A stretch of DNA of 63,813 bases, counting the filler. It is 5 parts of 5 records of this genome, joined end to end, with 100 filler letters (N's around TTAATTAATTAA, not from the genome) between each part and the next. Parts side by side here need not be neighbours in the genome. Positions count along the whole stretch, not along the records: positions 22,093 to 29,777 come from SRR31156797_26072; 4 more parts are not named here. One strand, written 5' to 3'. Made by a program: the position numbers and the translations under genes. Shown in pieces: positions 7,565-56,626 of the stretch. Within the stretch, counting starts at the first letter, position 1; each line of letters starts with the position of its first letter. The notes under the pieces were generated by a model. That model made no database searches. It worked only from the letters and a program-made list of their open reading frames with translations, and was not told where the DNA came from.

Positions 7565-8410
7565 ATGAGAACCCTCTACCTCGCATTCAAATACGGAGCG
7601 ATCCTTCTCTGGTCCTCTTTTGTAGCGCTCCCTTTTCTCTGGGCGCTCACCACTTCGTTCAAGACCGCAAACGGCGTCACCGGAGGCGCCACCTACATCC
7701 CCTGGCTCCAGTACAAACCCTCCCTGGAAGGGTGGAAAGTGCTGGTCAGATCGGGCGGGCAGGGCATCGACATCGTGCAGCCCTATATTTCGAGCATCAT
7801 CGTCACGGTGAGCGCCAGCATCATAAGCCTGGTGCTCGGGACCCTTGCCGCCTACGGCCTGGCGCGATTCACCTACAAGGCCGGGTTCGTCAAGAACAGC
7901 GACATCACGTTCTTTTTCATCTCCCAGAGAATCATGCCGCCCATCGTGCTCTCGATCCCCTTTTTCCTCATGCTGCAGTTTCTAGGCCTTCTCGACACAA
8001 TCCCGGGGCTGATTATCGTTTACGTAGCCCTGCTTCTGCCCATCGCCACGTGGGTCATGGTCGATTTTTTCAGCAACGTGCCGAAGGAAATGGACGAAAT
8101 GGCCATGATTGACGGGTGTACACCGGTCGGCGCCTTCCTGAGGGTGGTCCTGCCCAATTCCATACCGGGAATCGTGGTGGGAGGACTTTTTTGCATCATA
8201 TTCGGATGGAACGATTTTTTCTTCGCCTTCACCCTCACCTTCACCAAAACCCAGCTGCTTCCGGTAGCCGTGGTGGCCCTCAACTCTTCGGTGACGCCCT
8301 GGTGGAGCCTATCGGCTTCGGCCCTGGTTTCCGTGGCGCCGTTGGTGATCATCGCTTTCGTTGTCGAACGCTTTCTTTCCAGCGGCAACCTGGCGGGCGC
8401 TATCCGCTAA
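7565..8410 (+). CDS. Carbohydrate ABC transporter permease (MalG-like)
   Basis: AAYGLARF, EMAMIDG loop, WNDFFFA. Confidence 0.9.
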   Translation: MRTLYLAFKYGAILLWSSFVALPFLWALTTSFKTANGVTGGATYIPWLQYKPSLEGWKVLVRSGGQGIDIVQPYISSIIVTVSASIISLVLGTLAAYGLARFTYKAGFVKNSDITFFFISQRIMPPIVLSIPFFLMLQFLGLLDTIPGLIIVYVALLLPIATWVMVDFFSNVPKEMDEMAMIDGCTPVGAFLRVVLPNSIPGIVVGGLFCIIFGWNDFFFAFTLTFTKTQLLPVAVVALNSSVTPWWSLSASALVSVAPLVIIAFVVERFLSSGNLAGAIR

Positions 8411-8423
8411 GGAGGATGTTTTT

Positions 8424-9503
8424 ATGTCGTTGCTAATGAAAAACTTTGACATTCGAATAGACGGCGTCCCGCACCTGGACGACGTAAGCCTTGAGTTCAA
8501 ACGTGGAAAGCTTTACACGATTCTCGGCCGAACCCTGTCGGGGAAAACGACCCTGCTCAGAACCATCGCCGGTCTCCAGCCCCCCCAGAAGGGGGAGTTG
8601 ACCCTGCACGGAAAAGAGTTCCTGAGCCTTCCGGTCTGGAAACGGGGGGTGGCCATGGTCTACCAGCAATTCATCAATTACCCGCATCTGAACGTGCTGG
8701 CTAACGTGACCTTTCCCCTTAAACGCGCACGGGTCCCGATGCGCGAAGCAAAAAAGAGGGCGCGTGAAGTCCTCGCTAAAGTGGGGCTCTCCCGGTTTGA
8801 AGAGCGACGCCCCCGCGCCCTTTCCGGCGGTCAGCAGCAACGGGTCGCCCTGGCGCGGGCACTGGTCAAACGCTCGGACATCCTCTTGCTCGACGAACCC
8901 CTGGTCAACCTGGACTACAAGCTCAGGGAGCAGCTCAGGGAGGAGTTCCTGAACATTTTTCAGGGCCAGAACGACGCCATCGTCGTCTACACCACCACGG
9001 AGCCCGGAGAGGCCATCCAGCTCGGTCACGAACTGATCGTCATGGATGAAGGGGCCATCGTCCAGCAGGGCGATCCGCTGGAGGTTTTCAACTCTCCTTC
9101 GACCATTCGGTGCGCCGAAATCATCAACGACCCGCCCATAAACATACTGCAGGGGTCGATCCACGGGGGGGATCTCAATCTGCGCGGGGAAGTAACATTT
9201 CCGGCGCCAGACCACTTGAAGGGACTCCTTGACGGGGCCTACCTTTTCGGCCTGCAAGCCGCCGACCTGTACATTGGCGGCGACATTGCCGCAGAGATTG
9301 AGCTCAGCGAAATCAGCGGTTCCCAGACAATCCTCCACATGCAAGGGGGGATCGGGTCCTTTATCGTCCACGAGGCCGGAGTCCACCACCACCCCATCGG
9401 GAGCACCGTCGAGATCGGGATCGACCAGAACCGCATTTATGCTTTTTCCATTGACGGGGAACTCATGCGTCCTCCCACCGCAACGTCCGGACAAGGGAGG
9501 TAG
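8424..9503 (+). CDS. ABC ATPase (GlpS-like, glycerol/polyol-type)
   Basis: GRTLSGKT, LSGGQQQR, LLDEPL; ATG 8424 follows the RBS GGAGG. Confidence 0.88.
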   Translation: MSLLMKNFDIRIDGVPHLDDVSLEFKRGKLYTILGRTLSGKTTLLRTIAGLQPPQKGELTLHGKEFLSLPVWKRGVAMVYQQFINYPHLNVLANVTFPLKRARVPMREAKKRAREVLAKVGLSRFEERRPRALSGGQQQRVALARALVKRSDILLLDEPLVNLDYKLREQLREEFLNIFQGQNDAIVVYTTTEPGEAIQLGHELIVMDEGAIVQQGDPLEVFNSPSTIRCAEIINDPPINILQGSIHGGDLNLRGEVTFPAPDHLKGLLDGAYLFGLQAADLYIGGDIAAEIELSEISGSQTILHMQGGIGSFIVHEAGVHHHPIGSTVEIGIDQNRIYAFSIDGELMRPPTATSGQGR

Positions 9504-9509
9504 ACCATT

Positions 9510-10595
9510 ATGGCCAAGATCGAACTTTCAAACATCGCTCACACGTACGAGCCGACGGTTGAAAACCCTTTCTACGCATTGAAGAAACTGAACATGGTGT
9601 GGAAAGACGGGGGAACCTACGCACTTCTGGGCCCTTCCGGGTGCGGAAAAACCACGATGCTCAACATCATCTCCGGACTGGTCCGACCGAGCCACGGACA
9701 GGTACTCTTCGACGGGGTCGACTTCACGGAGTACTCGACGCCGGCCCGAAACATCGCCCAGGTGTTCCAGTTTCCCGTGATCTACACCCTCATGACCGTG
9801 GAAGAGAATCTCGACTTTCCCCTCAAGTGCAGAAACGTGCCGGAACAGGAGCGCAAAAAACGGGTCCTTGAAGTCGCCGAACTGCTCAACCTTTCGGACA
9901 AGTTGAAAAGACCCGCCCGGAAGCTGGCGGCCGACGAAAAGCAGCTGATCTCCCTGGGCCGGGGTCTTGTCCGCAGCGACGTTTCCGCCCTGCTTCTGGA
10001 CGAGCCCCTGACCGTCATCGACCCTCAGCTCAAATTCGATATCAGGAGAAAGCTCAAAACCATCAACGAGCGCTACGGTCTGACCATGGTTTATGTGACC
10101 CACGATCAGAACGAGGCCATGAGCTTTGCCGACACCATCGTCGTCATGAACAACGGCGAGGTGGTCCAGGCCGGCACGCCCCAGGAACTTTACGAGAAGC
10201 CCGAAACCACCTATGTGGGTTATTTTATCGGGTCTCCGTCCATGAATTTTATCAAATGCGGCTTCGACGGCGGCAGGCTTCACACAGCCGGGGGCTCAAT
10301 CCCCCTGCCCGCTTCGGTTTCCGTACCGGAAGACGGGACGAACCTGAAACTCGGAATCCGGCCCAGGTTTGTTTCATTCGGCCCCCCCGGCGCCGACGGC
10401 GCCCTTAAAGGCAAAACCGAGATGGTGCAGGAATTCGGCAATTACCGGATCGCAACCGTGAGAATCGAAGAAGATATTATCCGGCTCAAGCTGCCGCCCG
10501 GCGCCGAGATCCCGGCCGACGACGCATGGATAAGTTTTCCCGAGAACAAGATCTGCTTGTACGCAAACGACGTTTTAGTAGGCGGCAACCGGTAA
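9510..10595 (+). CDS. ABC ATPase (GlpT-like, glycerol/polyol-type)
   Basis: GPSGCGKT, degenerate signature LAADE, LLDEPL, VTHD. Confidence 0.88.
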   Translation: MAKIELSNIAHTYEPTVENPFYALKKLNMVWKDGGTYALLGPSGCGKTTMLNIISGLVRPSHGQVLFDGVDFTEYSTPARNIAQVFQFPVIYTLMTVEENLDFPLKCRNVPEQERKKRVLEVAELLNLSDKLKRPARKLAADEKQLISLGRGLVRSDVSALLLDEPLTVIDPQLKFDIRRKLKTINERYGLTMVYVTHDQNEAMSFADTIVVMNNGEVVQAGTPQELYEKPETTYVGYFIGSPSMNFIKCGFDGGRLHTAGGSIPLPASVSVPEDGTNLKLGIRPRFVSFGPPGADGALKGKTEMVQEFGNYRIATVRIEEDIIRLKLPPGAEIPADDAWISFPENKICLYANDVLVGGNR

Positions 10596-21992: not shown

Positions 21993-22092
21993 NNNNNNNN
22001 NNNNNNNNNNNNNNNNNNNNNNNNNNNNNNNNNNNNTTAATTAATTAANNNNNNNNNNNNNNNNNNNNNNNNNNNNNNNNNNNNNNNNNNNN
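21993..22092. other. Artificial contig linker
   Basis: N44-TTAATTAATTAA-N44 (stops in all six frames). Confidence 0.98.
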
Positions 22093-22719
22093 CCAGGGAA
22101 GAAACGGCTCCTCCTCAAAACAGAGGGCCAGCAGCGCATCATACTCTTCCCGGGTGGATACGATCAATGGATTCCGGCCCTGATCAAGGGCCTTGAAAAA
22201 GTCGCTTTTCACCGAAGTCAACACCCCTGCCGAATCAAACAATCCCAGGGACAGGATCTGTTCCGGCCGGTTTCGCGAATAGATCAGGGACACAAGCCCT
22301 CCCATGGAATTTCCCGCCAGATGAAACCGTGTGAGGCCAAGCTTGCCAACCGCCGCGGCCAGGCGCCTTTCCATGCTGATCACGTCGTAAGCTCCGGCGA
22401 AATCAAGGGAACTCTCCCCATGTCCCGGAAGATCCACCGCGATCACCCGAAAGGATTCTGGAATATATCGTGCAAACCTGAGCCAGTTGTCCTTATCCGC
22501 CCCAAAACCGTGGAGGAACACCATCACCTCCCCGTCCCCCTCCCGTTCCAGGTAACAAAGGGTCCGCCCCTCCACCATGACGGATTTTTTCTCCATGCCC
22601 GATTTGCTCCGTTCCATGGAAAGTCCGACCCTGAACACCGGTTCCTCGATGATACTGCATCCGCTACAAAACAATAAGGAAACAAAAATCAAGATTGTAA
22701 TTCGTAATTGTAATTTCAC
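22093..22719 (-). CDS. Alpha/beta-hydrolase (lipase/esterase), probable lipoprotein, 3' truncated
   Basis: LHGFG, DLPGHG, GNSMG nucleophile elbow; lipobox-like SGC. Confidence 0.88.
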
Positions 22720-23155
22720 TGCACAGACCTCCTGTATGGGGACGTTCCGGTATTACTGCCTGACTCATACCCATTTCATGGTGAGGCCAAAAACACAATA
22801 TTTTTTTTTGCCTTAACCATTTTCGCAGCCTGTTACAGCCCATGATCTCCCGGGGACCGATTCATTTTGAACTTGACAAAAAGACCCACAAATAGTTCAA
22901 TTGTTACGGGATGCGGAATCGAAAGCATATGTCATAAACGTCCTTATTATCAGGGTTATATTTAACGAATTCACCATACGATAAGAATTGTTTTATCTCA
23001 CTCTGTTTCGCCGGTTTCCATACAATCTCCCAGATCCCCTATCGCCAGCAAAAACAATCCGTTTTTTGGCTGAAACAAGATGTTACCCACATAGCGATGG
23101 TTTAAGATAGCCTTTATCACTTATCACCTACCGATCTTTTTTAAAGGGGTGGGGA

Positions 23156-24922
23156 ATGGAAAAAGTCCTGCAAACCTGGCTGTTTCATCAATGCCGGCAG
23201 CTGTCCGGATCGATACATGCCATGTTGTTGACAAATCCATCCGATGAAGGGCCGGACAAGCGGGTCCTGTTCTGGCCGGACAACCAGCGTGATCACACGC
23301 GGCTGTCCCGGGTTGCCCGGACGGCATTGCGCACGGGCCAGCCGGTGATAAAGCCCCACAATAACGAGATGAAAAAGACCGGTGAACCGCTGGATACCCT
23401 GGCCTGCCCGCTGTTTTTAAAGGGCCTGGTGTTCGGGGCGGTGGCCGTCGAGATGACCAACCGGTCCAAGCCCATGCAGGAAACAACGGTGGACCAGCTC
23501 AAGGCCGGTGCGGCATGGCTGGAAACCATGATTCTGCTGCATAACTCAACGTCCAGGGACCAACTGATGAATCTTGTGGACCTGGTTGCCTCGGGCCTTG
23601 AACAGGAACGGTTCAGACTGGCCGCAAGGGAGGTGACCAACGAACTTGCCCGACGTTTTTCCTGCAAGCGGGTGAGTATCGGTTTTCTGCGTTACAACAC
23701 TGTAAGGGTCGAGGCCCTGTCCCATTGTTCCCGGATCGACCAGCATTCCACCCAGGTTCAGGCCATCCGGGATGCCATGGCCGAATCCCTGGACCAGGGC
23801 GCCACCATGGTGTATCCCCCGGATCCCAACGCCCCCCCGATGGTCACCCGGTTCCATGCACAGCTGGCCAAAACGCAACATGGAACGGCCATATGCACCT
23901 TGCCACTGGTAAGAAACAACAAACCTGTCGGCGCAATGCTGCTGGAGCGCACCGTGGAGACCCCCTTTCCACCGGAAACGGTGGTGCAATGTGAGCAGAT
24001 CGGGCTGCTGCTCGGGCCGGTGCTGGAGACCAGAAGAAGGGACGAACGGCCCTTGCACTCAAAACTCCTTGAATCCTTGCGAACCGGGTTGGTCAAACTG
24101 TTCGGTCCGCGTCATCTGACGCTGAAAGCGACCGTCTTTGCGGGCGCAATTCTTCTGACCTGGCTTTCCATGGCCACCGCCATGTTTCGCATCTCCTGCG
24201 ATTCCGTGCTGGAACCCGGGGTCTGCCAGGTGGTGGTGGCCCCCCAGCAGGGGTATATTGCCCAGGCCCATGCCCGGGCCGGGGATCTGGTTCAGGCGGG
24301 GGATCTGCTGGCGACCCTGGATGACCAGGATTTGCTTCTCGAACAACGCAAATGGCAAAGCCAGCGGGCCCGGCTGCTCAAGGAATACCGAAAGGCACTG
24401 GCCGGCTTCGACCGCGCCGAAGTGGCCATTCTCAAAGCCAGGCGCGCCCAGGCCGAAGCCCAGCTGGAACTTACGAAAAAGCAGCTGGAACGCACAACCC
24501 TTGTGGCCCCGTTTTCCGGCCTGGTGGTGAAGGGCGACCTGAGCCAGGCCCTGGGTTCACCGGTCACCCGGGGCGAGGTGCTGTATGAAGTGGCTCCCAC
24601 GGGCCAATACCTGGTTATCCTGAAGGTGAATGACCGGGATATCGGTCTGGTCTCACCGGGACAAAGGGGGAAGTTGAAACTGTCCGGCATCCCCGACCAG
24701 ACCATCGCCATCACCATTGACCGGCTGACACCCGTGTCAACACCTGAAGAGGGACGCAACTACTTCCGGGTGGAGGCGACCATGGAAACACATTCGGATC
24801 TCATGCGCCCCGGCATGGAAGGCATCTCAAAAATAGAGATCGGCCGGCAGAAGCTGCTCCGGATCTGGGCCCGGCCATTGATTGAACGGCTGCGCCTCTT
24901 TTTCTGGAAACGGTTACCGTAA
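23156..24922 (+). CDS. GAF-domain HlyD-type membrane fusion protein
   Basis: Two GAF-like regions, one TM segment, VVAPQQG...GD.V..GD.L barrel-sandwich, coiled hairpin, APFSG.V, LMRPGMEG. Confidence 0.82.
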   Translation: MEKVLQTWLFHQCRQLSGSIHAMLLTNPSDEGPDKRVLFWPDNQRDHTRLSRVARTALRTGQPVIKPHNNEMKKTGEPLDTLACPLFLKGLVFGAVAVEMTNRSKPMQETTVDQLKAGAAWLETMILLHNSTSRDQLMNLVDLVASGLEQERFRLAAREVTNELARRFSCKRVSIGFLRYNTVRVEALSHCSRIDQHSTQVQAIRDAMAESLDQGATMVYPPDPNAPPMVTRFHAQLAKTQHGTAICTLPLVRNNKPVGAMLLERTVETPFPPETVVQCEQIGLLLGPVLETRRRDERPLHSKLLESLRTGLVKLFGPRHLTLKATVFAGAILLTWLSMATAMFRISCDSVLEPGVCQVVVAPQQGYIAQAHARAGDLVQAGDLLATLDDQDLLLEQRKWQSQRARLLKEYRKALAGFDRAEVAILKARRAQAEAQLELTKKQLERTTLVAPFSGLVVKGDLSQALGSPVTRGEVLYEVAPTGQYLVILKVNDRDIGLVSPGQRGKLKLSGIPDQTIAITIDRLTPVSTPEEGRNYFRVEATMETHSDLMRPGMEGISKIEIGRQKLLRIWARPLIERLRLFFWKRLP

Positions 24923-24927
24923 GAGGA

Positions 24928-27078
24928 ATGATGAACCAATCGCTGTTCAGCACATATTGGTTTCGTGTCGCAAACCTCAAGCCAATGCTGCGGGATTCCA
25001 CCAAAATTTTCCGGCATGTCTACAAGGGCCAGCCCTGGTACGTGCTGATGAACAGCCTGAATGGGCGCAATCACCGGTTCAATGGGGCCGCCTACGCCAT
25101 GATCGGCCAAATGGACGGCACACGAACGGTTCAGGAGATCTGGGACAATGCCTGTCAACGGGCTGGCGATGCCGCCCCGACCCAGGATGAAATCATTCTC
25201 CTGCTCGCTATGCTGCACCAAACGGATCTGATCCAAAGCGACATTCTGCCCAGCACGGCGGAACTGTTCCGGCAGGCCCGGGGAGGGGCGGACAATAGTT
25301 GGAAAAAGCGGATTTCCAACCCGTTCTCCATGCGGTTTCCCCTCTTTGATCCGGACCGGTTTCTGAACAAATGGGGCTTTCTCACGGCGCCCCTGTTCAC
25401 CCGGGGAGCTTTTTTCGCCTGGTTGCTCATGGTGGCGGCGGCCATGGTGGCGGCAGGACTCAACTTTCCCGAATTATCCGGCAACCTGGCCGACCGGCTC
25501 TTTTTGCCCCGGAACCTGCTGCTGCTCTGGCTGGTTTTTCCCCTGGTGAAGTTGTTCCACGAATTCGGTCACGCCTTTGCCGTAAAAAAATGGGGGGGCG
25601 AGGTGCATGAGGTGGGAATCATGCTGCTGGCAATGACCCCCATCCCCTATGTGAATGCCACCGCCTCCGCCTCTTTTCCCGAGAAACGGCACAGAATCGC
25701 CGTTGCCGCAATGGGAATGGCCGTGGAGTTGCTGCTGGCATCCCTTGCGCTGCTGGTCTGGCTGAATGTGGAAACCGGCCTGGTCAGCGCCATTGCCTAT
25801 AACGTCATGCTCATCGCCGGGGCCTCCACCGTGCTGTTCAACGGCAATCCCCTGCTGCGATACGACGGATACTACATCCTGGCCGACCTGATCGAAATTC
25901 CCAATCTGAGCCAGCGCTCCACCCGCTATCTCGGCTATCTGTTCCAGCGCTATCTGCTGGGGATTGAAACGGCTGAATCACCGGTTACCGCCCCCGGGGA
26001 AAGAATCTGGTTCCTGGTTTACGCCCCGGTCTCCTTCTGCTACCGTATGGCCGTTCTGGTGGGACTGATGCTTCTGATCAGCAGCCGTTTTTTCGGCCTG
26101 GGGATGCTGATTGCCCTGTGGGGGGGCATCAATCTGTTAATCCTCCCTCCGGTCCGCACCCTGTCCCGCTTCCTGAACAGCCCGGCGGGACGCAGCCGCC
26201 GTACCCGCCTGGCCGCCATGGCCATTGGGCTGGCCCTGGGGGGGGCCCTCCTGTTTTTCATCCTCCCGGTTCCCCTCCGGACCGCCACCCAGGGAGTGGT
26301 CTGGCTGCCTGAACAATCAGCGGTCAGGGCCGGCACAGATTGCGAGGTGGTTGAAGTGCTGACACCTGTGGAAGCGTTCGTAACCAGGGATGTTCCCCTG
26401 ATCCGTGGGACCGATCCCTTTCTGGACGCGGATATCGAAATTTACAAAGCCCGCCTGGAGGAACTCTACGCCGCTTACAATGCCCAGCCGCGCCACAAAC
26501 GGGTAAAACGGAAAATGCTGCTGGAAGAGATCCAACGGATCAAAAAGGATCTGAAGCAAGCCGAGGCGAAACGGGAGAAGCTGGTGGTGCACAGTCCGGC
26601 CCAGGGCCTGTTTATTTTGATGGAAGCCCGGAACCTGCCCGGCCATTTTGTCAAAAAAGGGGAACTCCTCGGTTATATCCTTGCGGAACAATCCCCCACG
26701 GTCCGGGCCGTGGTTCGCCAGGCAGATATCGGGCTGGTGCGGAAAAAGGTCACCGGGGTGGAGGTGCGGCTGGCCGAACAACCGGGAACACCCATCCGGG
26801 CCCGGATCAAACGGATTATCCCGGCAGCGGCCCTTAACCTGCCGTCGGCGGCCCTGGGCACCGCAGGCGGCGGAGACATCCCCATGGATCCCACCGATCC
26901 GGAAGGATTGCGGGCCCTGGTAACCCATTTTCAGCTGGATCTCAGCCTGCCGGAAGGGATAAGGACGCCCCATATCGGCGGAAGGGTCTTTGTACGCATC
27001 GAGCATGGGGCCATGCCCCTGGCCATGCAGTGGTACCGCAGGTTACGCCAACTGTTTTTAAGGAAGTTTTATGTTTAG
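24928..27078 (+). CDS. M50 (site-2) metalloprotease fused to an N-terminal PqqD-like domain and a C-terminal MFP-like domain
   Basis: HEFGH and NGNPLLRYDG zinc motifs in a TM region; MDGTRTVQEIW PqqD-like pattern; C-terminal G..V..G.LLG barrel-sandwich. Confidence 0.85.
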   Translation: MMNQSLFSTYWFRVANLKPMLRDSTKIFRHVYKGQPWYVLMNSLNGRNHRFNGAAYAMIGQMDGTRTVQEIWDNACQRAGDAAPTQDEIILLLAMLHQTDLIQSDILPSTAELFRQARGGADNSWKKRISNPFSMRFPLFDPDRFLNKWGFLTAPLFTRGAFFAWLLMVAAAMVAAGLNFPELSGNLADRLFLPRNLLLLWLVFPLVKLFHEFGHAFAVKKWGGEVHEVGIMLLAMTPIPYVNATASASFPEKRHRIAVAAMGMAVELLLASLALLVWLNVETGLVSAIAYNVMLIAGASTVLFNGNPLLRYDGYYILADLIEIPNLSQRSTRYLGYLFQRYLLGIETAESPVTAPGERIWFLVYAPVSFCYRMAVLVGLMLLISSRFFGLGMLIALWGGINLLILPPVRTLSRFLNSPAGRSRRTRLAAMAIGLALGGALLFFILPVPLRTATQGVVWLPEQSAVRAGTDCEVVEVLTPVEAFVTRDVPLIRGTDPFLDADIEIYKARLEELYAAYNAQPRHKRVKRKMLLEEIQRIKKDLKQAEAKREKLVVHSPAQGLFILMEARNLPGHFVKKGELLGYILAEQSPTVRAVVRQADIGLVRKKVTGVEVRLAEQPGTPIRARIKRIIPAAALNLPSAALGTAGGGDIPMDPTDPEGLRALVTHFQLDLSLPEGIRTPHIGGRVFVRIEHGAMPLAMQWYRRLRQLFLRKFYV

Positions 27079-29083
27079 TTCATCCCTTGCAGAAGACATC
27101 AAAGCCATGCGCCCCGGTCCCATCGCGGGCCAGTATCCCCAGCGGTGCAGCCGTGAAGACGGATGGCTCGAGGACGCCTTGGGCGCCCTTAAGGGAACGC
27201 TGATGCGGCTGACCATGGACGGCCTGACAAGCCTGCCCGGAATCGCCGCGAGCATCAGCCGCAGGGGAGAAGCGTTGACCGGTCTTGACAACACAGCTCT
27301 CAACGCCCTGGGGGTAAAATTGCGCCATGATTTCCTCCGCCGGGGGCTGGTCCCACGGCTCTGCATGGAATCCTTCGCCCTGATCCGGGAACTTGCCATG
27401 CGATCAATCCGGTTGCGGCATTACGATTCCCAGGTCATGGCCGGCTGGGTGATGCTCCAGGGCCGGCTTGCGGAAATGGAAACCGGAGAGGGAAAAACCC
27501 TGGCAGCCACCTTGGCAGCGGCCACCGCGGCCCTGGCCGGAATCCCTGTCCATGTGATCACCGTCAACGAATACCTTGTGGAACGGGACGCGGCCGCCAT
27601 GGCCCCCCTCTACCGGGCCCTGGGCCTGACCGTGGGGGTCGTCATCCAGGCCATGGCGCCGGAACGGCGCCGGGCCGGGTACGGGTGCAATATCACCTAT
27701 TGCACCAACAAGCAGGTGGCCTTTGATTATCTGCGGGACCGGCTGCTCCTCGGCAACACCCCCAGCCGGTTGCGGCTGCAACTGGAACCGGCCTATTCCG
27801 ACAATCACCGCCTGGGCCGGTTTCTGCTGCGCGGACTCTGTTACGCCATTGTGGACGAGGCGGACAGTGTCCTGATCGACGATGCCCGTACCCCCCTTAT
27901 CATAACCCGCAACACCGACGGCCAGGCGCAACACGCGATTTATCAACATGCCCTGAACCTGGCCGGCCCCATGGAACCCGGACGTGATTTCTTCCTGGAT
28001 CCCGGACGACACGGGGTACGGCTCAGCCTGGCCGGGCAACAGCGGCTGGCAGGTCTCCACCGGTCCGAAAAAGGGCTGTGGCAAAATACCCGCCACCGGG
28101 AAGAACTGGTCTGCCAGGCCCTCCATGCCCTGCATCTTTTGCACAGGGACCGCGACTACCTGGTGCACGAGGGCAAGATCGTGATTATCGATGCCAACAC
28201 CGGGCGGACAATGCCTGACCGCTCCTGGGAACGGGGGCTCCACCAGCTGGTGGAAGCAAAAGAAAACGCTCCCCTGACCGGGACCCGCGATCAGTTGGGA
28301 CGGTTGACCTATCAACGTTTTTTCCGCCGTTACCTGCACCTTGGCGGCATGACCGGAACAGCCCGGGAAGGCGCGTCCGAACTATGGTCGGTATACCGGC
28401 TCAAGGTCCGTGGGATTCCCCTGCACCGCCCCTGCCGGCGCCAGGAGCTGCCCCCCCGGATTTATCCCCGGGCCGGAGAGAAATGGGCAGCGGTGATCAA
28501 TGCGGTCAAGGGGATGCAACGCCGGGGAAGACCGGTGCTGATCGGTACCGGTTCGGTGGCCGATTCAGAGTTGTTGAGCCGACGACTGACTGCGGCAAAG
28601 ATCCCCCACCAGGTATTGAACGCCCGGCAGGATAAGGAGGAGGCACGGATTATCGCGGCCGCCGGCAGGCAGGGGCAAGTCACCGTTGCGACCAACATGG
28701 CGGGCCGGGGCACCGATATCCCCCTTGCCGGCGGGGTGGCCGCCCTGGGAGGGCTGCATGTCATCGCCACCTGCCGTAACCGGGCCAGACGAATAGACCG
28801 ACAGCTCTACGGACGCTGTGCCCGCCAGGGAGACCCCGGCAGTTTTCAGGAAATTCTTTCACTGGAGGATGAATTGATCCAACAGAACTGTCACCCGGCG
28901 CTGGTCAAATTTATGGGTCGGCCCTGGACAATGGCCCGCCGGTTTCAAGGCCAACTGAATCTGTTCATCATAGGACACGCCCAACGGGGCATCGAACGCC
29001 GGCATCGCGAAAACCGGCGAACACTTTTGCAGCATGACCGGCAGACCGGCCGGCTGCTGGCATTCAGCGGTCCTCTGGAATAG
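27071..29083 (+). CDS. Short SecA-like DEAD ATPase (accessory; lacks the C-terminal SecA domains)
   Basis: EMETGEGKT, TVNEYL..RD, FDYLRD, IVDEADSVLID, GMTGTA, ATNMAGRGTDI, RIDRQL.GR..RQGDPG, SLED; only 670 aa. Confidence 0.9.
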   Translation: MFSSSLAEDIKAMRPGPIAGQYPQRCSREDGWLEDALGALKGTLMRLTMDGLTSLPGIAASISRRGEALTGLDNTALNALGVKLRHDFLRRGLVPRLCMESFALIRELAMRSIRLRHYDSQVMAGWVMLQGRLAEMETGEGKTLAATLAAATAALAGIPVHVITVNEYLVERDAAAMAPLYRALGLTVGVVIQAMAPERRRAGYGCNITYCTNKQVAFDYLRDRLLLGNTPSRLRLQLEPAYSDNHRLGRFLLRGLCYAIVDEADSVLIDDARTPLIITRNTDGQAQHAIYQHALNLAGPMEPGRDFFLDPGRHGVRLSLAGQQRLAGLHRSEKGLWQNTRHREELVCQALHALHLLHRDRDYLVHEGKIVIIDANTGRTMPDRSWERGLHQLVEAKENAPLTGTRDQLGRLTYQRFFRRYLHLGGMTGTAREGASELWSVYRLKVRGIPLHRPCRRQELPPRIYPRAGEKWAAVINAVKGMQRRGRPVLIGTGSVADSELLSRRLTAAKIPHQVLNARQDKEEARIIAAAGRQGQVTVATNMAGRGTDIPLAGGVAALGGLHVIATCRNRARRIDRQLYGRCARQGDPGSFQEILSLEDELIQQNCHPALVKFMGRPWTMARRFQGQLNLFIIGHAQRGIERRHRENRRTLLQHDRQTGRLLAFSGPLE

Positions 29084-29097
29084 GAGATAAAACATCC

Positions 29098-29777
29098 ATG
29101 GTGATTATACGCAAAACAACCTTTTTCACCCTGACGCTAACCGCCATTTCGATGTTGTGGATTACGGCAGTATGGGCCGAAACAGTGGAATACGACGGCC
29201 TGATCGAACCCGATCTCATTGTCGAGATCGGGGCGCCTGCAGAAGGAATTGTCACCAGGGTAGCGGTCGATCGCAGCAGTCCGGTAACGGAAGGAGAAAC
29301 CCTTGTGGAACTGGAATCCTCGGTGGAACAGGCGGCGTTGGAAAAAGCGGAAGCCCTGGCCGCCTTTGACGGCGAAATCCGCCTGCATCAAACCCAGCTT
29401 GCGTTTACCAAACGGGCTCACCAACGGGTTAAACAACTTGAAGCGGTCTCCACCCATGACAAGGACATGGCCGCCACCGAGATTATCCAGACCCGACATC
29501 GCCTGAAAAAGGCCCGGGAAAAGCGCACCCTGGCCCGGCTGGAGCTCAAAAAGGCCCGGGCGGTGCTGGCCCTGCGCTCCATCAAAAGCCCGATCTCCGG
29601 CGTGGTGGCGGAGCGCTATGTTTCCCCCGGCGAATATGTCAACAGCCAGCCCCTGCTCCGGGTGGTCAAGATCGACCCCTTGCGGGTCGAAGTGATCGTT
29701 CCCGCCCGGATATTCGGCAGGATCACCCCCGGCATGACCGCGGCCATTATTCCGGAACTGCCGGAATACGGGGAAAA
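29098..29777 (+). CDS. RND/HlyD-type periplasmic adaptor (MFP), 3' truncated
   Basis: Signal peptide, G.V..V.V, coiled hairpin, IKSPISGVV, PGEYV, DPLRVE. Confidence 0.88.
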
Positions 29778-29877
29778 NNNNNNNNNNNNNNNNNNNNNNN
29801 NNNNNNNNNNNNNNNNNNNNNTTAATTAATTAANNNNNNNNNNNNNNNNNNNNNNNNNNNNNNNNNNNNNNNNNNNN
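29778..29877. other. Artificial contig linker
   Basis: N-run with TTAATTAATTAA; GC content drops sharply across it. Confidence 0.98.
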
Positions 29878-49569: not shown

Positions 49570-49669
49570 NNNNNNNNNNNNNNNNNNNNNNNNNNNNNNN
49601 NNNNNNNNNNNNNTTAATTAATTAANNNNNNNNNNNNNNNNNNNNNNNNNNNNNNNNNNNNNNNNNNNN
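49570..49669. other. Artificial contig linker
   Basis: N-run with TTAATTAATTAA. Confidence 0.98.
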
Positions 49670-56526: not shown

Positions 56527-56626
56527 NNNNNNNNNNNNNNNNNNNNNNNNNNNNNNNNNNNNNNNNNNNNTTAATTAATTAANNNNNNNNNNNNNNNNNN
56601 NNNNNNNNNNNNNNNNNNNNNNNNNN
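56527..56626. other. Artificial contig linker
   Basis: N-run with TTAATTAATTAA. Confidence 0.98.

Follow-up and report, generated by a model that had tools for sequence, protein, structure and literature searches.

How might a bacterium carry polypeptides across its envelope with a set of genes that encodes membrane fusion protein (MFP) adaptors, an intramembrane protease and a SecA-type motor, and no ABC or RND pump beside them? This question is raised by an operon located in a stretch of 63,813 bases (the window), which is composed of five contigs with N spacers between them. The operon lies on a Desulfobacteraceae-like contig of 7,685 bases (22093-29777). Its genes encode, in this order, an adaptor with tandem GAF domains, a fusion of M50 protease and adaptor, a paralogue of SecA and a further, small adaptor. 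To judge from its sequence, the operon is the core of a conserved "secondary SecA_DEAD / T1SS-related" module (T1SS, type I secretion system), and it is a genuine, unexceptional representative of a candidate secretion system that is known but uncharacterised. Considering the gene content of its relatives, we regard it as fairly probable that this module spans the envelope and serves specifically to export and mature giant surface proteins that begin with a LEPR leader. The genes of the operon and the domains discussed below are the following:

23156-24922, + strand: GAF-MFP, 588 amino acids (aa), assigned by Pfam, an AlphaFold2 model and VIA-align
24928-27078, + strand: M50-MFP, a fusion of an RRE-like (RiPP recognition element; RiPP, ribosomally synthesized and post-translationally modified peptide), an M50 and an MFP part, 716 aa
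24982-25242, + strand: predicted RRE-like (PqqD-like) fold of M50-MFP, aa 19-105, from AlphaFold2 and VIA-align
25354-26262, + strand: M50/site-2-protease-like membrane domain of M50-MFP, aa 143-445
26266-27027, + strand: C-terminal periplasmic MFP adaptor of M50-MFP, aa 447-700, with the alpha-hairpin H497-519/H525-550
27071-29083, + strand: truncated SecA paralogue, 670 aa, whose start overlaps the M50-MFP stop by 8 nucleotides (nt)
29098-29777, + strand: small secreted MFP adaptor, first 226 aa visible, Pfam HlyD_D23 and HlyD_3

The four proteins of the operon

The idea of an ABC-less, SecA-powered device with an M50 protein as the pore is not original here, since it has been in print since 2015 (Kamneva, Poudel and Ward, PLoS One 2015; PMC4452313). 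As far as the available part of that paper goes, comparative genomics revealed a "secondary SecA_DEAD" locus with a conserved neighbourhood of GAF/HlyD, Peptidase_M50/HlyD and HlyD/Biotin_lipoyl genes, sometimes near a gene of the OEP (TolC-type) family and with no ABC transporter. The SecA_DEAD protein was proposed to be the ATPase and the M50 protein a possible pore of an ABC-less module related to T1SS. The same available text names no cargo, states that the biological role is unknown and contains the term DUF4347 0 times. The operon described here agrees with the Methylobacterium extorquens AM1 operon MexAM1_META1p2402-2399 reported there in its four proteins and in their order (GAF, M50, SecA_DEAD, HlyD), and it shares with that module a SecA_DEAD domain without SecA_SW, orthology across phyla and a conserved neighbourhood. 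What is added here to that description, as available, is an RRE-like fold, a leader motif with a link to cargo, and a Desulfobacteraceae-like example cut at its fourth gene. The first-pass annotation of the window knew of no mechanistic characterisation, and this agrees with our full-text literature search, which left most subscription journals outside its coverage and found neither experimental work on the module nor a paper tying it to LEPR-XLL/DUF4347 proteins. The module is also unmentioned in the available part of a 2021 Chem Rev review on tripartite pumps (PMC8277102).

The four open reading frames (ORFs) are all on the + strand and are spaced by +5, -8 and +14 nt. The fourth is incomplete, as the contig ends at 29777 and an N spacer follows from 29778. 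The first-pass annotation had described four tightly coupled genes with these spacings, encoding three MFP domains, an M50 protease and a SecA-type motor, and both the ORF calls and the Pfam and NCBIfam searches agree with it. It had also noticed no ABC or RND pump in the visible part, and indeed none is encoded on the 7,685-base operon contig. Two adjacent importer-like ABC ATPase genes are found on the first contig of the window, at 8361-10595, and they are the sole ABC ATPase homologues in the 63,813-base stretch (matched at 8436-10511); the two genes are unlinked to the operon and should not be taken for a missing pump.

The most complex protein of the set is M50-MFP. Pfam recognises Peptidase_M50 (21.8 bits, cut-off 27.2), HlyD_3 (24 bits) and PqqD (20.8 bits, cut-off 23.4; E 4.8e-4) in it. 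The NCBIfam model of the daptide HExxH intramembrane protease (NF041824) matches residues 25-395 with E 6e-41 and 140.8 bits for a cut-off of 300, and by this score M50-MFP is a homologue of that family, not a member. In the AlphaFold2 model (47 homologues, pLDDT 82.5), the N-terminal part is predicted to adopt the three-strand and three-helix winged fold of RRE (PqqD-like) domains, with strands at 26-32, 35-42 and 47-51 and helices at 53-60, 68-82 and 86-98. In VIA-align this part matches lasso-peptide B1 proteins solved with leader peptides, i.e., 5v1u_A (Z 9.0, 83 of 84 residues, root-mean-square deviation, rmsd, 2.9) and 6jx3_B (Z 8.7, 84 of 85 residues). On this model we propose it as a putative cytoplasmic leader-binding domain. 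A complex prediction of residues 1-150 of M50-MFP from the nearest relative locus (L001) with the first 45 residues of the giant protein encoded there, run without alignments, scored 0.03 for a mark of 0.34, an outcome that speaks neither for nor against binding.

The membrane domain that follows carries HExxH at aa 211-215 (nt 25558-25572), and H211, E212, H215, N305, N307, P308 and D313 are invariant in the 47 aligned homologues. The second group of residues reads NxxPxxxxD, which we take to be the NxxPxxxxDG-type zinc-ligand motif downstream of HExxH that M50 proteases carry in their membrane helices. Residues 143-324 match an RseP orthologue (7w6z_A, Z 9.4, 132 aligned) and SpoIVFB (8vjl_A, Z 9.4, 134 aligned) in VIA-align. 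HExxH, a downstream zinc-ligand motif and the fold of site-2 proteases (S2P) are hence all present despite a Pfam score below the gathering threshold. Seven membrane helices were counted by hand as hydrophobic helices in the model, and with this number the leader-binding fold would be cytoplasmic and the adaptor periplasmic. The adaptor itself matches MexA and MacA in Foldseek (E 5.7e-10 and lower-ranked matches), and in VIA-align its residues 448-700 match 4l8j_A, MacA-MexA 4dk1_A, MexA 1vf7_A and MacA 5nik_D with Z 13.4-13.8, EmrA being also among the matches (Z 13-14). Foldseek run with the whole M50-MFP model against the PDB returned only adaptors, and the protease and RRE matches come solely from the wide VIA-align search.

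A leader-binding element and a leader protease next to an exporter are known from peptidase-containing ABC transporters (PCATs) and from RiPP leader peptidases with an RRE, such as the lasso-peptide B1/B2 proteins and the HExxH membrane proteases of the daptide MpaP type and of YydH/LiaK. The module resembles them in that leader binding, leader cleavage and export would be joined in one membrane assembly (RRE Z 9.0, daptide E 6e-41). In contrast, its protease is of the M50 and not of the C39 type and is fused to an MFP and not to an ABC pump, its scores lie below the NCBIfam cut-offs, and its likely substrates are thousands of residues long and not peptides. No C39 peptidase or ABC match was found in any of the four proteins with Pfam or NCBIfam. 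This likeness raises the alternative that a small peptide of RiPP or bacteriocin type is matured and exported, the giant genes described below being bystanders. In its favour, the RRE fold corresponds to lasso-peptide B1 proteins, the daptide and epipeptide (YydH/LiaK) leader peptidases are the nearest protease families with a name, and there are weak matches to NHLP bacteriocin-type HlyD proteins. However, we consider this alternative very unlikely: the clustered ORFs of at least 80 aa of the relatives contain neither a conserved small ORF nor a modifying enzyme, the 436-nt gap upstream of the operon holds only unsupported ORFs of 31-79 aa, and it is the giants that carry the leader motif.

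The two other adaptors are encoded at both ends of the operon. GAF-MFP contains one GAF domain at aa 1-129 and another at aa 131-298, a membrane helix at about aa 321-339 and an HlyD/MFP adaptor with an alpha-hairpin at aa 341-566 (Pfam GAF, E 4.5e-9; HlyD_3/HlyD_D23, E 5.9e-22). In its AlphaFold2 model (40 homologues, pLDDT 84.2), residues 131-298 match GAF domains with a Z of 16.6 (3trc_A, 156 aligned, rmsd 3.2), residues 1-298 match the tandem GAF of the phosphodiesterase PDE2A (3ibj_B, Z 16.3, 245 aligned) with an rmsd of 16.2 because the two halves differ in orientation, and residues 341-563 match EmrA (4tko_B, Z 16.0), all by VIA-align. The GAF pair is assigned to the cytoplasmic side and the adaptor to the periplasmic side of the helix. 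The small adaptor has a hydrophobic, signal-like N-terminus ending in ...VWA, and its complete length in the closest loci is 275-310 aa. Three periplasmic adaptor domains of the kind used in type I secretion are thus distributed across the operon. The best NCBIfam adaptor matches are RND and metal efflux subfamilies, all of them below their cut-offs, and they would fit a device for stress or for the efflux of small molecules or metals to which MFP adaptors simply happen to belong. Such a device has, however, no RND, ABC or MFS pump linked to it here and would have no role for a polypeptide motor of the SecA type or for a fold that binds leaders, so that we find this explanation hardly credible.

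The third protein is recognised by Pfam as SecA_DEAD (E 1.7e-92), SecA_PP_bind and P-loop_SecA, and as nothing else, and it fails every NCBIfam SecA/SecA2 equivalog cut-off (best 558.4 bits for a cut-off of 814). It aligns to residues 35-601 of the 802-residue SecA 1m6n_A, and its closest solved structure is SecA2 6sxh_A (E 2e-115). On this alignment, and with the domain map of SecA that we assume, the paralogue would keep the first nucleotide-binding domain (NBD1), the preprotein cross-linking domain (PPXD), NBD2 and the start of the scaffold helix, and would lack the wing, the two-helix finger and the C-terminal tail. Its ATPase motifs, with Walker A, DEAD-like and arginine-finger motifs among them, are Walker A GEGKT (aa 139), VDEADS (aa 261), TNMAGRGTD (aa 541) and GRxxRQGDPG (aa 581). 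The key residues of Walker A and of the two NBD2 motifs (aa 541-552 and aa 572-586) are about 97-100% conserved in 66 homologues, the columns checked not including VDEADS. The paralogue is therefore like canonical SecA and SecA2 in NBD1, PPXD, NBD2 and the ATPase motifs, and it differs from them in its 670 aa, in the early stop in the scaffold helix, and in a gene that is translationally coupled to the protease-adaptor gene and not linked to secY2/asp.

SecA2 of Gram-positive bacteria and mycobacteria works with SecY channels, and RseP cleaves membrane-embedded segments. A two-step route can be conceived on these grounds, in which the SecA paralogue is a targeting ATPase that passes LEPR-leader proteins to SecYEG, M50-MFP is the leader peptidase, and the adaptors with TolC take the periplasmic intermediate out. 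Intact PPXD and both nucleotide-binding domains, as well as the match of the M50 fold to RseP, speak for such a route, which would also avoid the need for an unprecedented pore. Nevertheless, it appears unlikely to us, as the paralogue ends at the equivalent of residue 601 of 802 and would therefore lack the two-helix finger and the wing domain used at SecY, and the leader and the size of the giants described in the next section tell against it as well. A motor without wing and scaffold has been described elsewhere: the available part of a preprint (West-Roberts et al., bioRxiv 10.1101/2023.11.21.568195) reports SecA_DEAD domains without these parts inside giant proteins of Omnitrophota and Actinobacteria. 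The module is like those giants in tying a wing- and scaffold-less SecA ATPase to the export of giant proteins and unlike them in that the SecA domain there is within the giant itself and, in the text available, no MFP or M50 partners are described.

Conservation of the module and its giant neighbours

We have compared the operon with its relatives in a survey that took one genome per species and yielded 140 relatives of M50-MFP, of which the best 80 loci were kept and searched with the operon proteins by tblastn. Of the 71 loci that offer 900 nt of room or more, 69 have the SecA-like gene directly after the M50-MFP gene, L045 and L048 being the exceptions, and GAF-MFP directly precedes M50-MFP in 72 of 73 loci with room, the exception (L078) being a split alignment. 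This linkage is far beyond chance. A lack of conserved linkage between the secA-like and M50-MFP genes had been named in the first-pass annotation as an observation that would overturn its reading, and it was not what we have found. The loci are annotated as Desulfobacterota, Gammaproteobacteria, Planctomycetota, Acidobacteriota, Chloroflexota, Verrucomicrobiota, Bacteroidota, Rokubacteria and Nitrospirota. The nearest locus, L001, belongs to a metagenome-assembled genome of Desulfobacteraceae and shows 88-92% identity in all four proteins and in a hydrolase encoded upstream; GAF-MFP and M50-MFP are each 88% identical to their counterparts in L001, and the small adaptor is 92% identical.

The relatives also show what lies past the point at which our contig breaks. 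ABC ATPase homologues are present in 3 of the 80 loci (L004, L013 and L020; 1.19 Mb in total), several kb away, none of them adjacent or conserved. No RND pump is apparent from the N-termini of the ORFs of at least 900 aa, a set in which the Pfam scan covered one ORF, the Hsp70-like protein of L014. The other observation that was to overturn the first reading, a conserved ABC or RND pump downstream of the break, is thus not borne out by these loci. The ABC transporter of type I secretion is a linked gene neither on the operon contig nor, as a conserved partner, in the 80 loci. Genes of the OEP (TolC-type) family occur inside 12 of the 80 loci and in none of L001-L012, and a small DUF3467 gene precedes GAF-MFP in 35 of the 80 and is found neither in the window nor in L001-L013. 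Beyond the module, DUF3467 and OEP are the only genes that recur among the 80 loci, and a clustering of the ORFs of at least 80 aa (785 ORFs) revealed no conserved small ORF or modifying enzyme.

The main result of the comparison concerns the gene that follows. In the clade of the operon (L001-L013), a giant gene follows the small MFP gene on the same strand in 13 of the 13 loci with room, and a cargo gene would therefore lie just past the contig break at 29777. The N-terminus of these giants has a short basic stretch followed, in the closest relatives, by ...YEELEQRVLFSAD..., with the motif ...YEELE(Q/P)RVLFSAD.... A regular expression for this leader motif gave 23 matches in 23 of the 80 loci, all of them within the first 100 residues of frames of 669-2,718 aa, many of which end at the locus edge, and none internal. 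One more leader, that of L010, was recognised by eye, and 14 further loci have long frames whose N-terminus lies outside the retrieved stretch. E16, E19 and R21 (numbering of the L001 leader) are invariant in the 23 leader sequences. The giant of L002 is complete, with 1,587 aa; it matches the NCBIfam model LEPR-XLL (NF012209) at residues 21-36 with 19.5 bits for a cut-off of 17, DUF4347 at residues 77-245, and cadherin, Big_9 and He_PIG repeats, and no RTX repeat was matched in it by Pfam at E <= 0.01.

Searches of whole genomes extend this adjacency. For L031 and L037, they put a LEPR match at the head of two frames, 10,672 and 9,014 aa long, whose other end is beside the module. LEPR matches over the cut-off were found in 5 of 5 genomes behind the loci and in 0 of 14 control genomes. 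In all five, a LEPR match is at the N-terminus of the frame that adjoins the module, over the cut-off in four of them; in the fifth (G002) the adjoining match has 16.1 bits, below 17, and the match over the cut-off is elsewhere in the genome. The LEPR-headed frames that end beside the module measure 19,211 aa (G194:C2:23891), 10,672 aa (G004:C1:583632), 9,417 aa (G035:C1:1915) and 9,014 aa (G003:C1:2250764, minus strand). Among 201 Desulfobacterota genomes, 16 have a match to protease plus adaptor, 10 more to the protease part only, and 10 have a LEPR match. LEPR is matched in 7 of the 16 module-bearing genomes versus 3 of the 185 module-free genomes (Fisher p = 5e-7, uncorrected for relatedness), and in 5 of the 7 genomes with both, module and LEPR are neighbours on a single contig, where the frames reach 19,211 aa. 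The first-pass annotation had mentioned similar clusters near giant repeat proteins and TolC; this holds well for the giants (13 of 13 closest loci) and less for TolC (12 of 80 loci). The genome of L007 (G001) carries two copies of M50-MFP (1095 and 881 bits; C1:3723845-3741860 and C1:5440968-5447534), each with a LEPR-leader frame (2,683 or 3,364 aa) within about 16 kb.

These giants bear on the two-step route through SecYEG introduced above, since their leader has no hydrophobic core of the Sec signal kind and frames of 9,000-19,000 aa would be improbable as free periplasmic intermediates. They also invite a comparison with the type I systems for giant adhesins and RTX proteins, i.e., HlyB-HlyD-TolC and LapBCE-LapA with LapD/LapG. 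The module and type I secretion are alike in their periplasmic MFP adaptors, in a linked OEP gene (12 of 80 loci), in a giant, repeat-rich cargo of surface type and in the cyclic di-GMP (c-di-GMP) genes nearby. They are unlike in that the module has no ABC transporter, a SecA paralogue as motor and three adaptor paralogues, of which two carry additional domains, and in that the signal of its cargo is N-terminal (LEPR-XLL) and not C-terminal, the L002 cargo having no RTX repeats.

As for the c-di-GMP genes, PAS-GGDEF genes are directly 3' of the giant gene in L001 (19308-20340), L002 (19801-21456) and L005 (20011-22145), and a receiver-PAS-GGDEF-EAL gene is just upstream of the module in L021 (5199-7322), with one of the same cluster in L058. 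By their position, these genes hint at c-di-GMP control. They would also suit a different role, in which the module trims, tethers or releases the N-terminus of adhesins exported by a separate type I ABC system, as LapG/LapD do with LapA, the GAF domains being the sensor. GAF domains are typical sensors, and a leader-binding fold with a protease would be enough for processing. We hold this role to be improbable, because it would account neither for the three adaptor paralogues nor for a SecA-type ATPase that is kept, with intact motifs, in 69 of 71 loci. In addition, Pfam matches no RTX repeat domain in the L002 giant, which is complete, no ABC gene is linked, and a protease site on the cytoplasmic side, as the modelled topology would have it, would meet the N-terminus before and not after export.

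Surroundings of the operon

The contigs of the window differ in composition, with a G+C content of about 51-62% in the first two, about 24-38% in the next two and up to about 47-48% along the fifth. Given these swings, for instance from about 57% to 24-35%, the contigs need not share one organism, and a mixed bin or an unbinned assembly is possible. The N spacers are at 21993-22092, 29778-29877, 49570-49669 and 56527-56626, with TTAATTAATTAA in mid-spacer. Upstream of the operon, on its own contig, two features were annotated:

22093-22719, - strand: cut alpha/beta-hydrolase gene, its family assigned through the L002 orthologue
22860-23155, + strand: conserved upstream non-coding region, with TTGACA at 22873-22878 and, ahead of the ATG, a G-rich ribosome-binding stretch

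The hydrolase gene is common only to L001-L003 in the clustering of ORFs across loci, and we do not count it as part of the module. The gap of 436 nt between the hydrolase and GAF-MFP genes contains the non-coding region, which is conserved to an unusual degree and aligns with L001, L002 and L003 in long identical blocks, TTGACA lying some 280 nt ahead of the start codon. A possible promoter and a long, regulated 5' leader of the operon are suggested by these features. No Rfam family was matched in this region, and 0 of 36 predicted RNA pairs covary in the four sequences compared. Promoter and terminator scans did no better than on shuffled sequences, and the TTGACA region is not listed by the promoter scan. 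Within the M50-MFP gene, a sub-threshold Rfam match to Prion_pknot at 25427-25457 (32.7 bits for a gathering score of 39, E 0.0056) was judged to be due to chance.

Two observations on the relatives stand apart. In L014 (17419-21736) and L015, an Hsp70-like protein with DUF3731 ("DNA-K related protein"), another protein of its cluster and a protein with a Nitro_FeMo-Co domain are encoded after the module. In L053, L071, L072 and L073, the module is on contigs binned as Anaerolineales (Chloroflexota), a group rarely credited with a TolC-type outer membrane; these occurrences could be due to mis-binning or be an interesting exception.

A candidate export machine for giant proteins

The anatomy of the module resembles a peptidase-containing exporter rebuilt from other parts, and we therefore take the module as a dedicated export and maturation machine. 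The established layer consists of the domain anatomy, the catalytic motifs, the gene order, the finding that no ABC or RND pump is linked to the module, and the adjacency and co-occurrence of LEPR giants; from this layer we infer the whole of the mechanism that follows. The RRE-like cytoplasmic domain of M50-MFP would bind the leader of the giant. The shortened SecA paralogue, devoid of the parts that canonical SecA uses at SecY, would spend ATP in feeding the unfolded chain, N-terminus first, to a receiving membrane assembly, to which the M50 domain may contribute its seven helices and the adaptors a single helix each. The leader would be removed by the M50 zinc site, the three adaptor paralogues would make a periplasmic duct to a TolC-type channel encoded elsewhere, and the tandem GAF domains may gate the process on a small ligand, perhaps a cyclic nucleotide. 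The first-pass annotation had given M50-MFP two roles, leader peptidase and inner-membrane channel. Cleavage of the leader coupled to export becomes more plausible with the predicted RRE fold and the intact HExxH and NxxPxxxxD motifs. The channel role has not fared equally well, and we think it doubtful that the M50 domain forms the pore.

Several points weigh against this interpretation. To our knowledge, no protease of the S2P family forms a protein-conducting pore, and pore formation is beyond what a monomer model can show. TolC is absent from 68 of the 80 loci, all of L001-L012 included, and the 7.7-kb operon contig contains no TolC gene and no cargo gene. As the sequence offers no cargo, no TolC and nothing past 29777, the cargo link of this operon is an analogy with relatives at 53-88% identity. 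LEPR is not matched in 9 of the 16 module-bearing Desulfobacterota genomes, and 3 genomes have LEPR without the module; the misses may come from fragmented assemblies or from a weak model of 24 positions. Natural fusions of M50-MFP with SecA (P0001 and P0002, two among the 120 longer proteins listed) were considered as well, and they are single-sequence clusters in which the end of M50-MFP is replaced by Arg/Ala-rich stretches. They look like frameshifts with out-of-frame read-through and therefore give no Rosetta-stone support. Finally, the available part of the earlier report (PMC4452313) states that, during exponential growth of M. extorquens AM1, most of the operon of that bacterium showed little or no expression.

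With these points considered, it seems to us an even call whether the module represents a distinct class of Gram-negative secretion, i.e., one independent of ABC transporters and driven by a truncated SecA, in which a RiPP-style domain recognises an N-terminal LEPR-XLL leader and an intramembrane M50 protease-adaptor cleaves it, and which exports some of the largest bacterial proteins. The operon described here is one further, incomplete example in another lineage, and its value rests with the family, which has cultured carriers in Desulfosarcina alkanivorans PL12, Desulfoluna limicola and Syntrophorhabdus aromaticivorans UI and, as reported in PMC4452313, in M. extorquens AM1. If the interpretation of the module as a dedicated export machine is true, a secretion route would be missing from the textbook list, and this route would explain how proteins of thousands to nearly twenty thousand residues are placed on the surface of many environmental bacteria, in at least nine phyla. 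It would also mean three re-uses of known parts: a SecA motor working away from SecY, an S2P-type protease acting in export, and a RiPP leader-recognition fold serving giant proteins.

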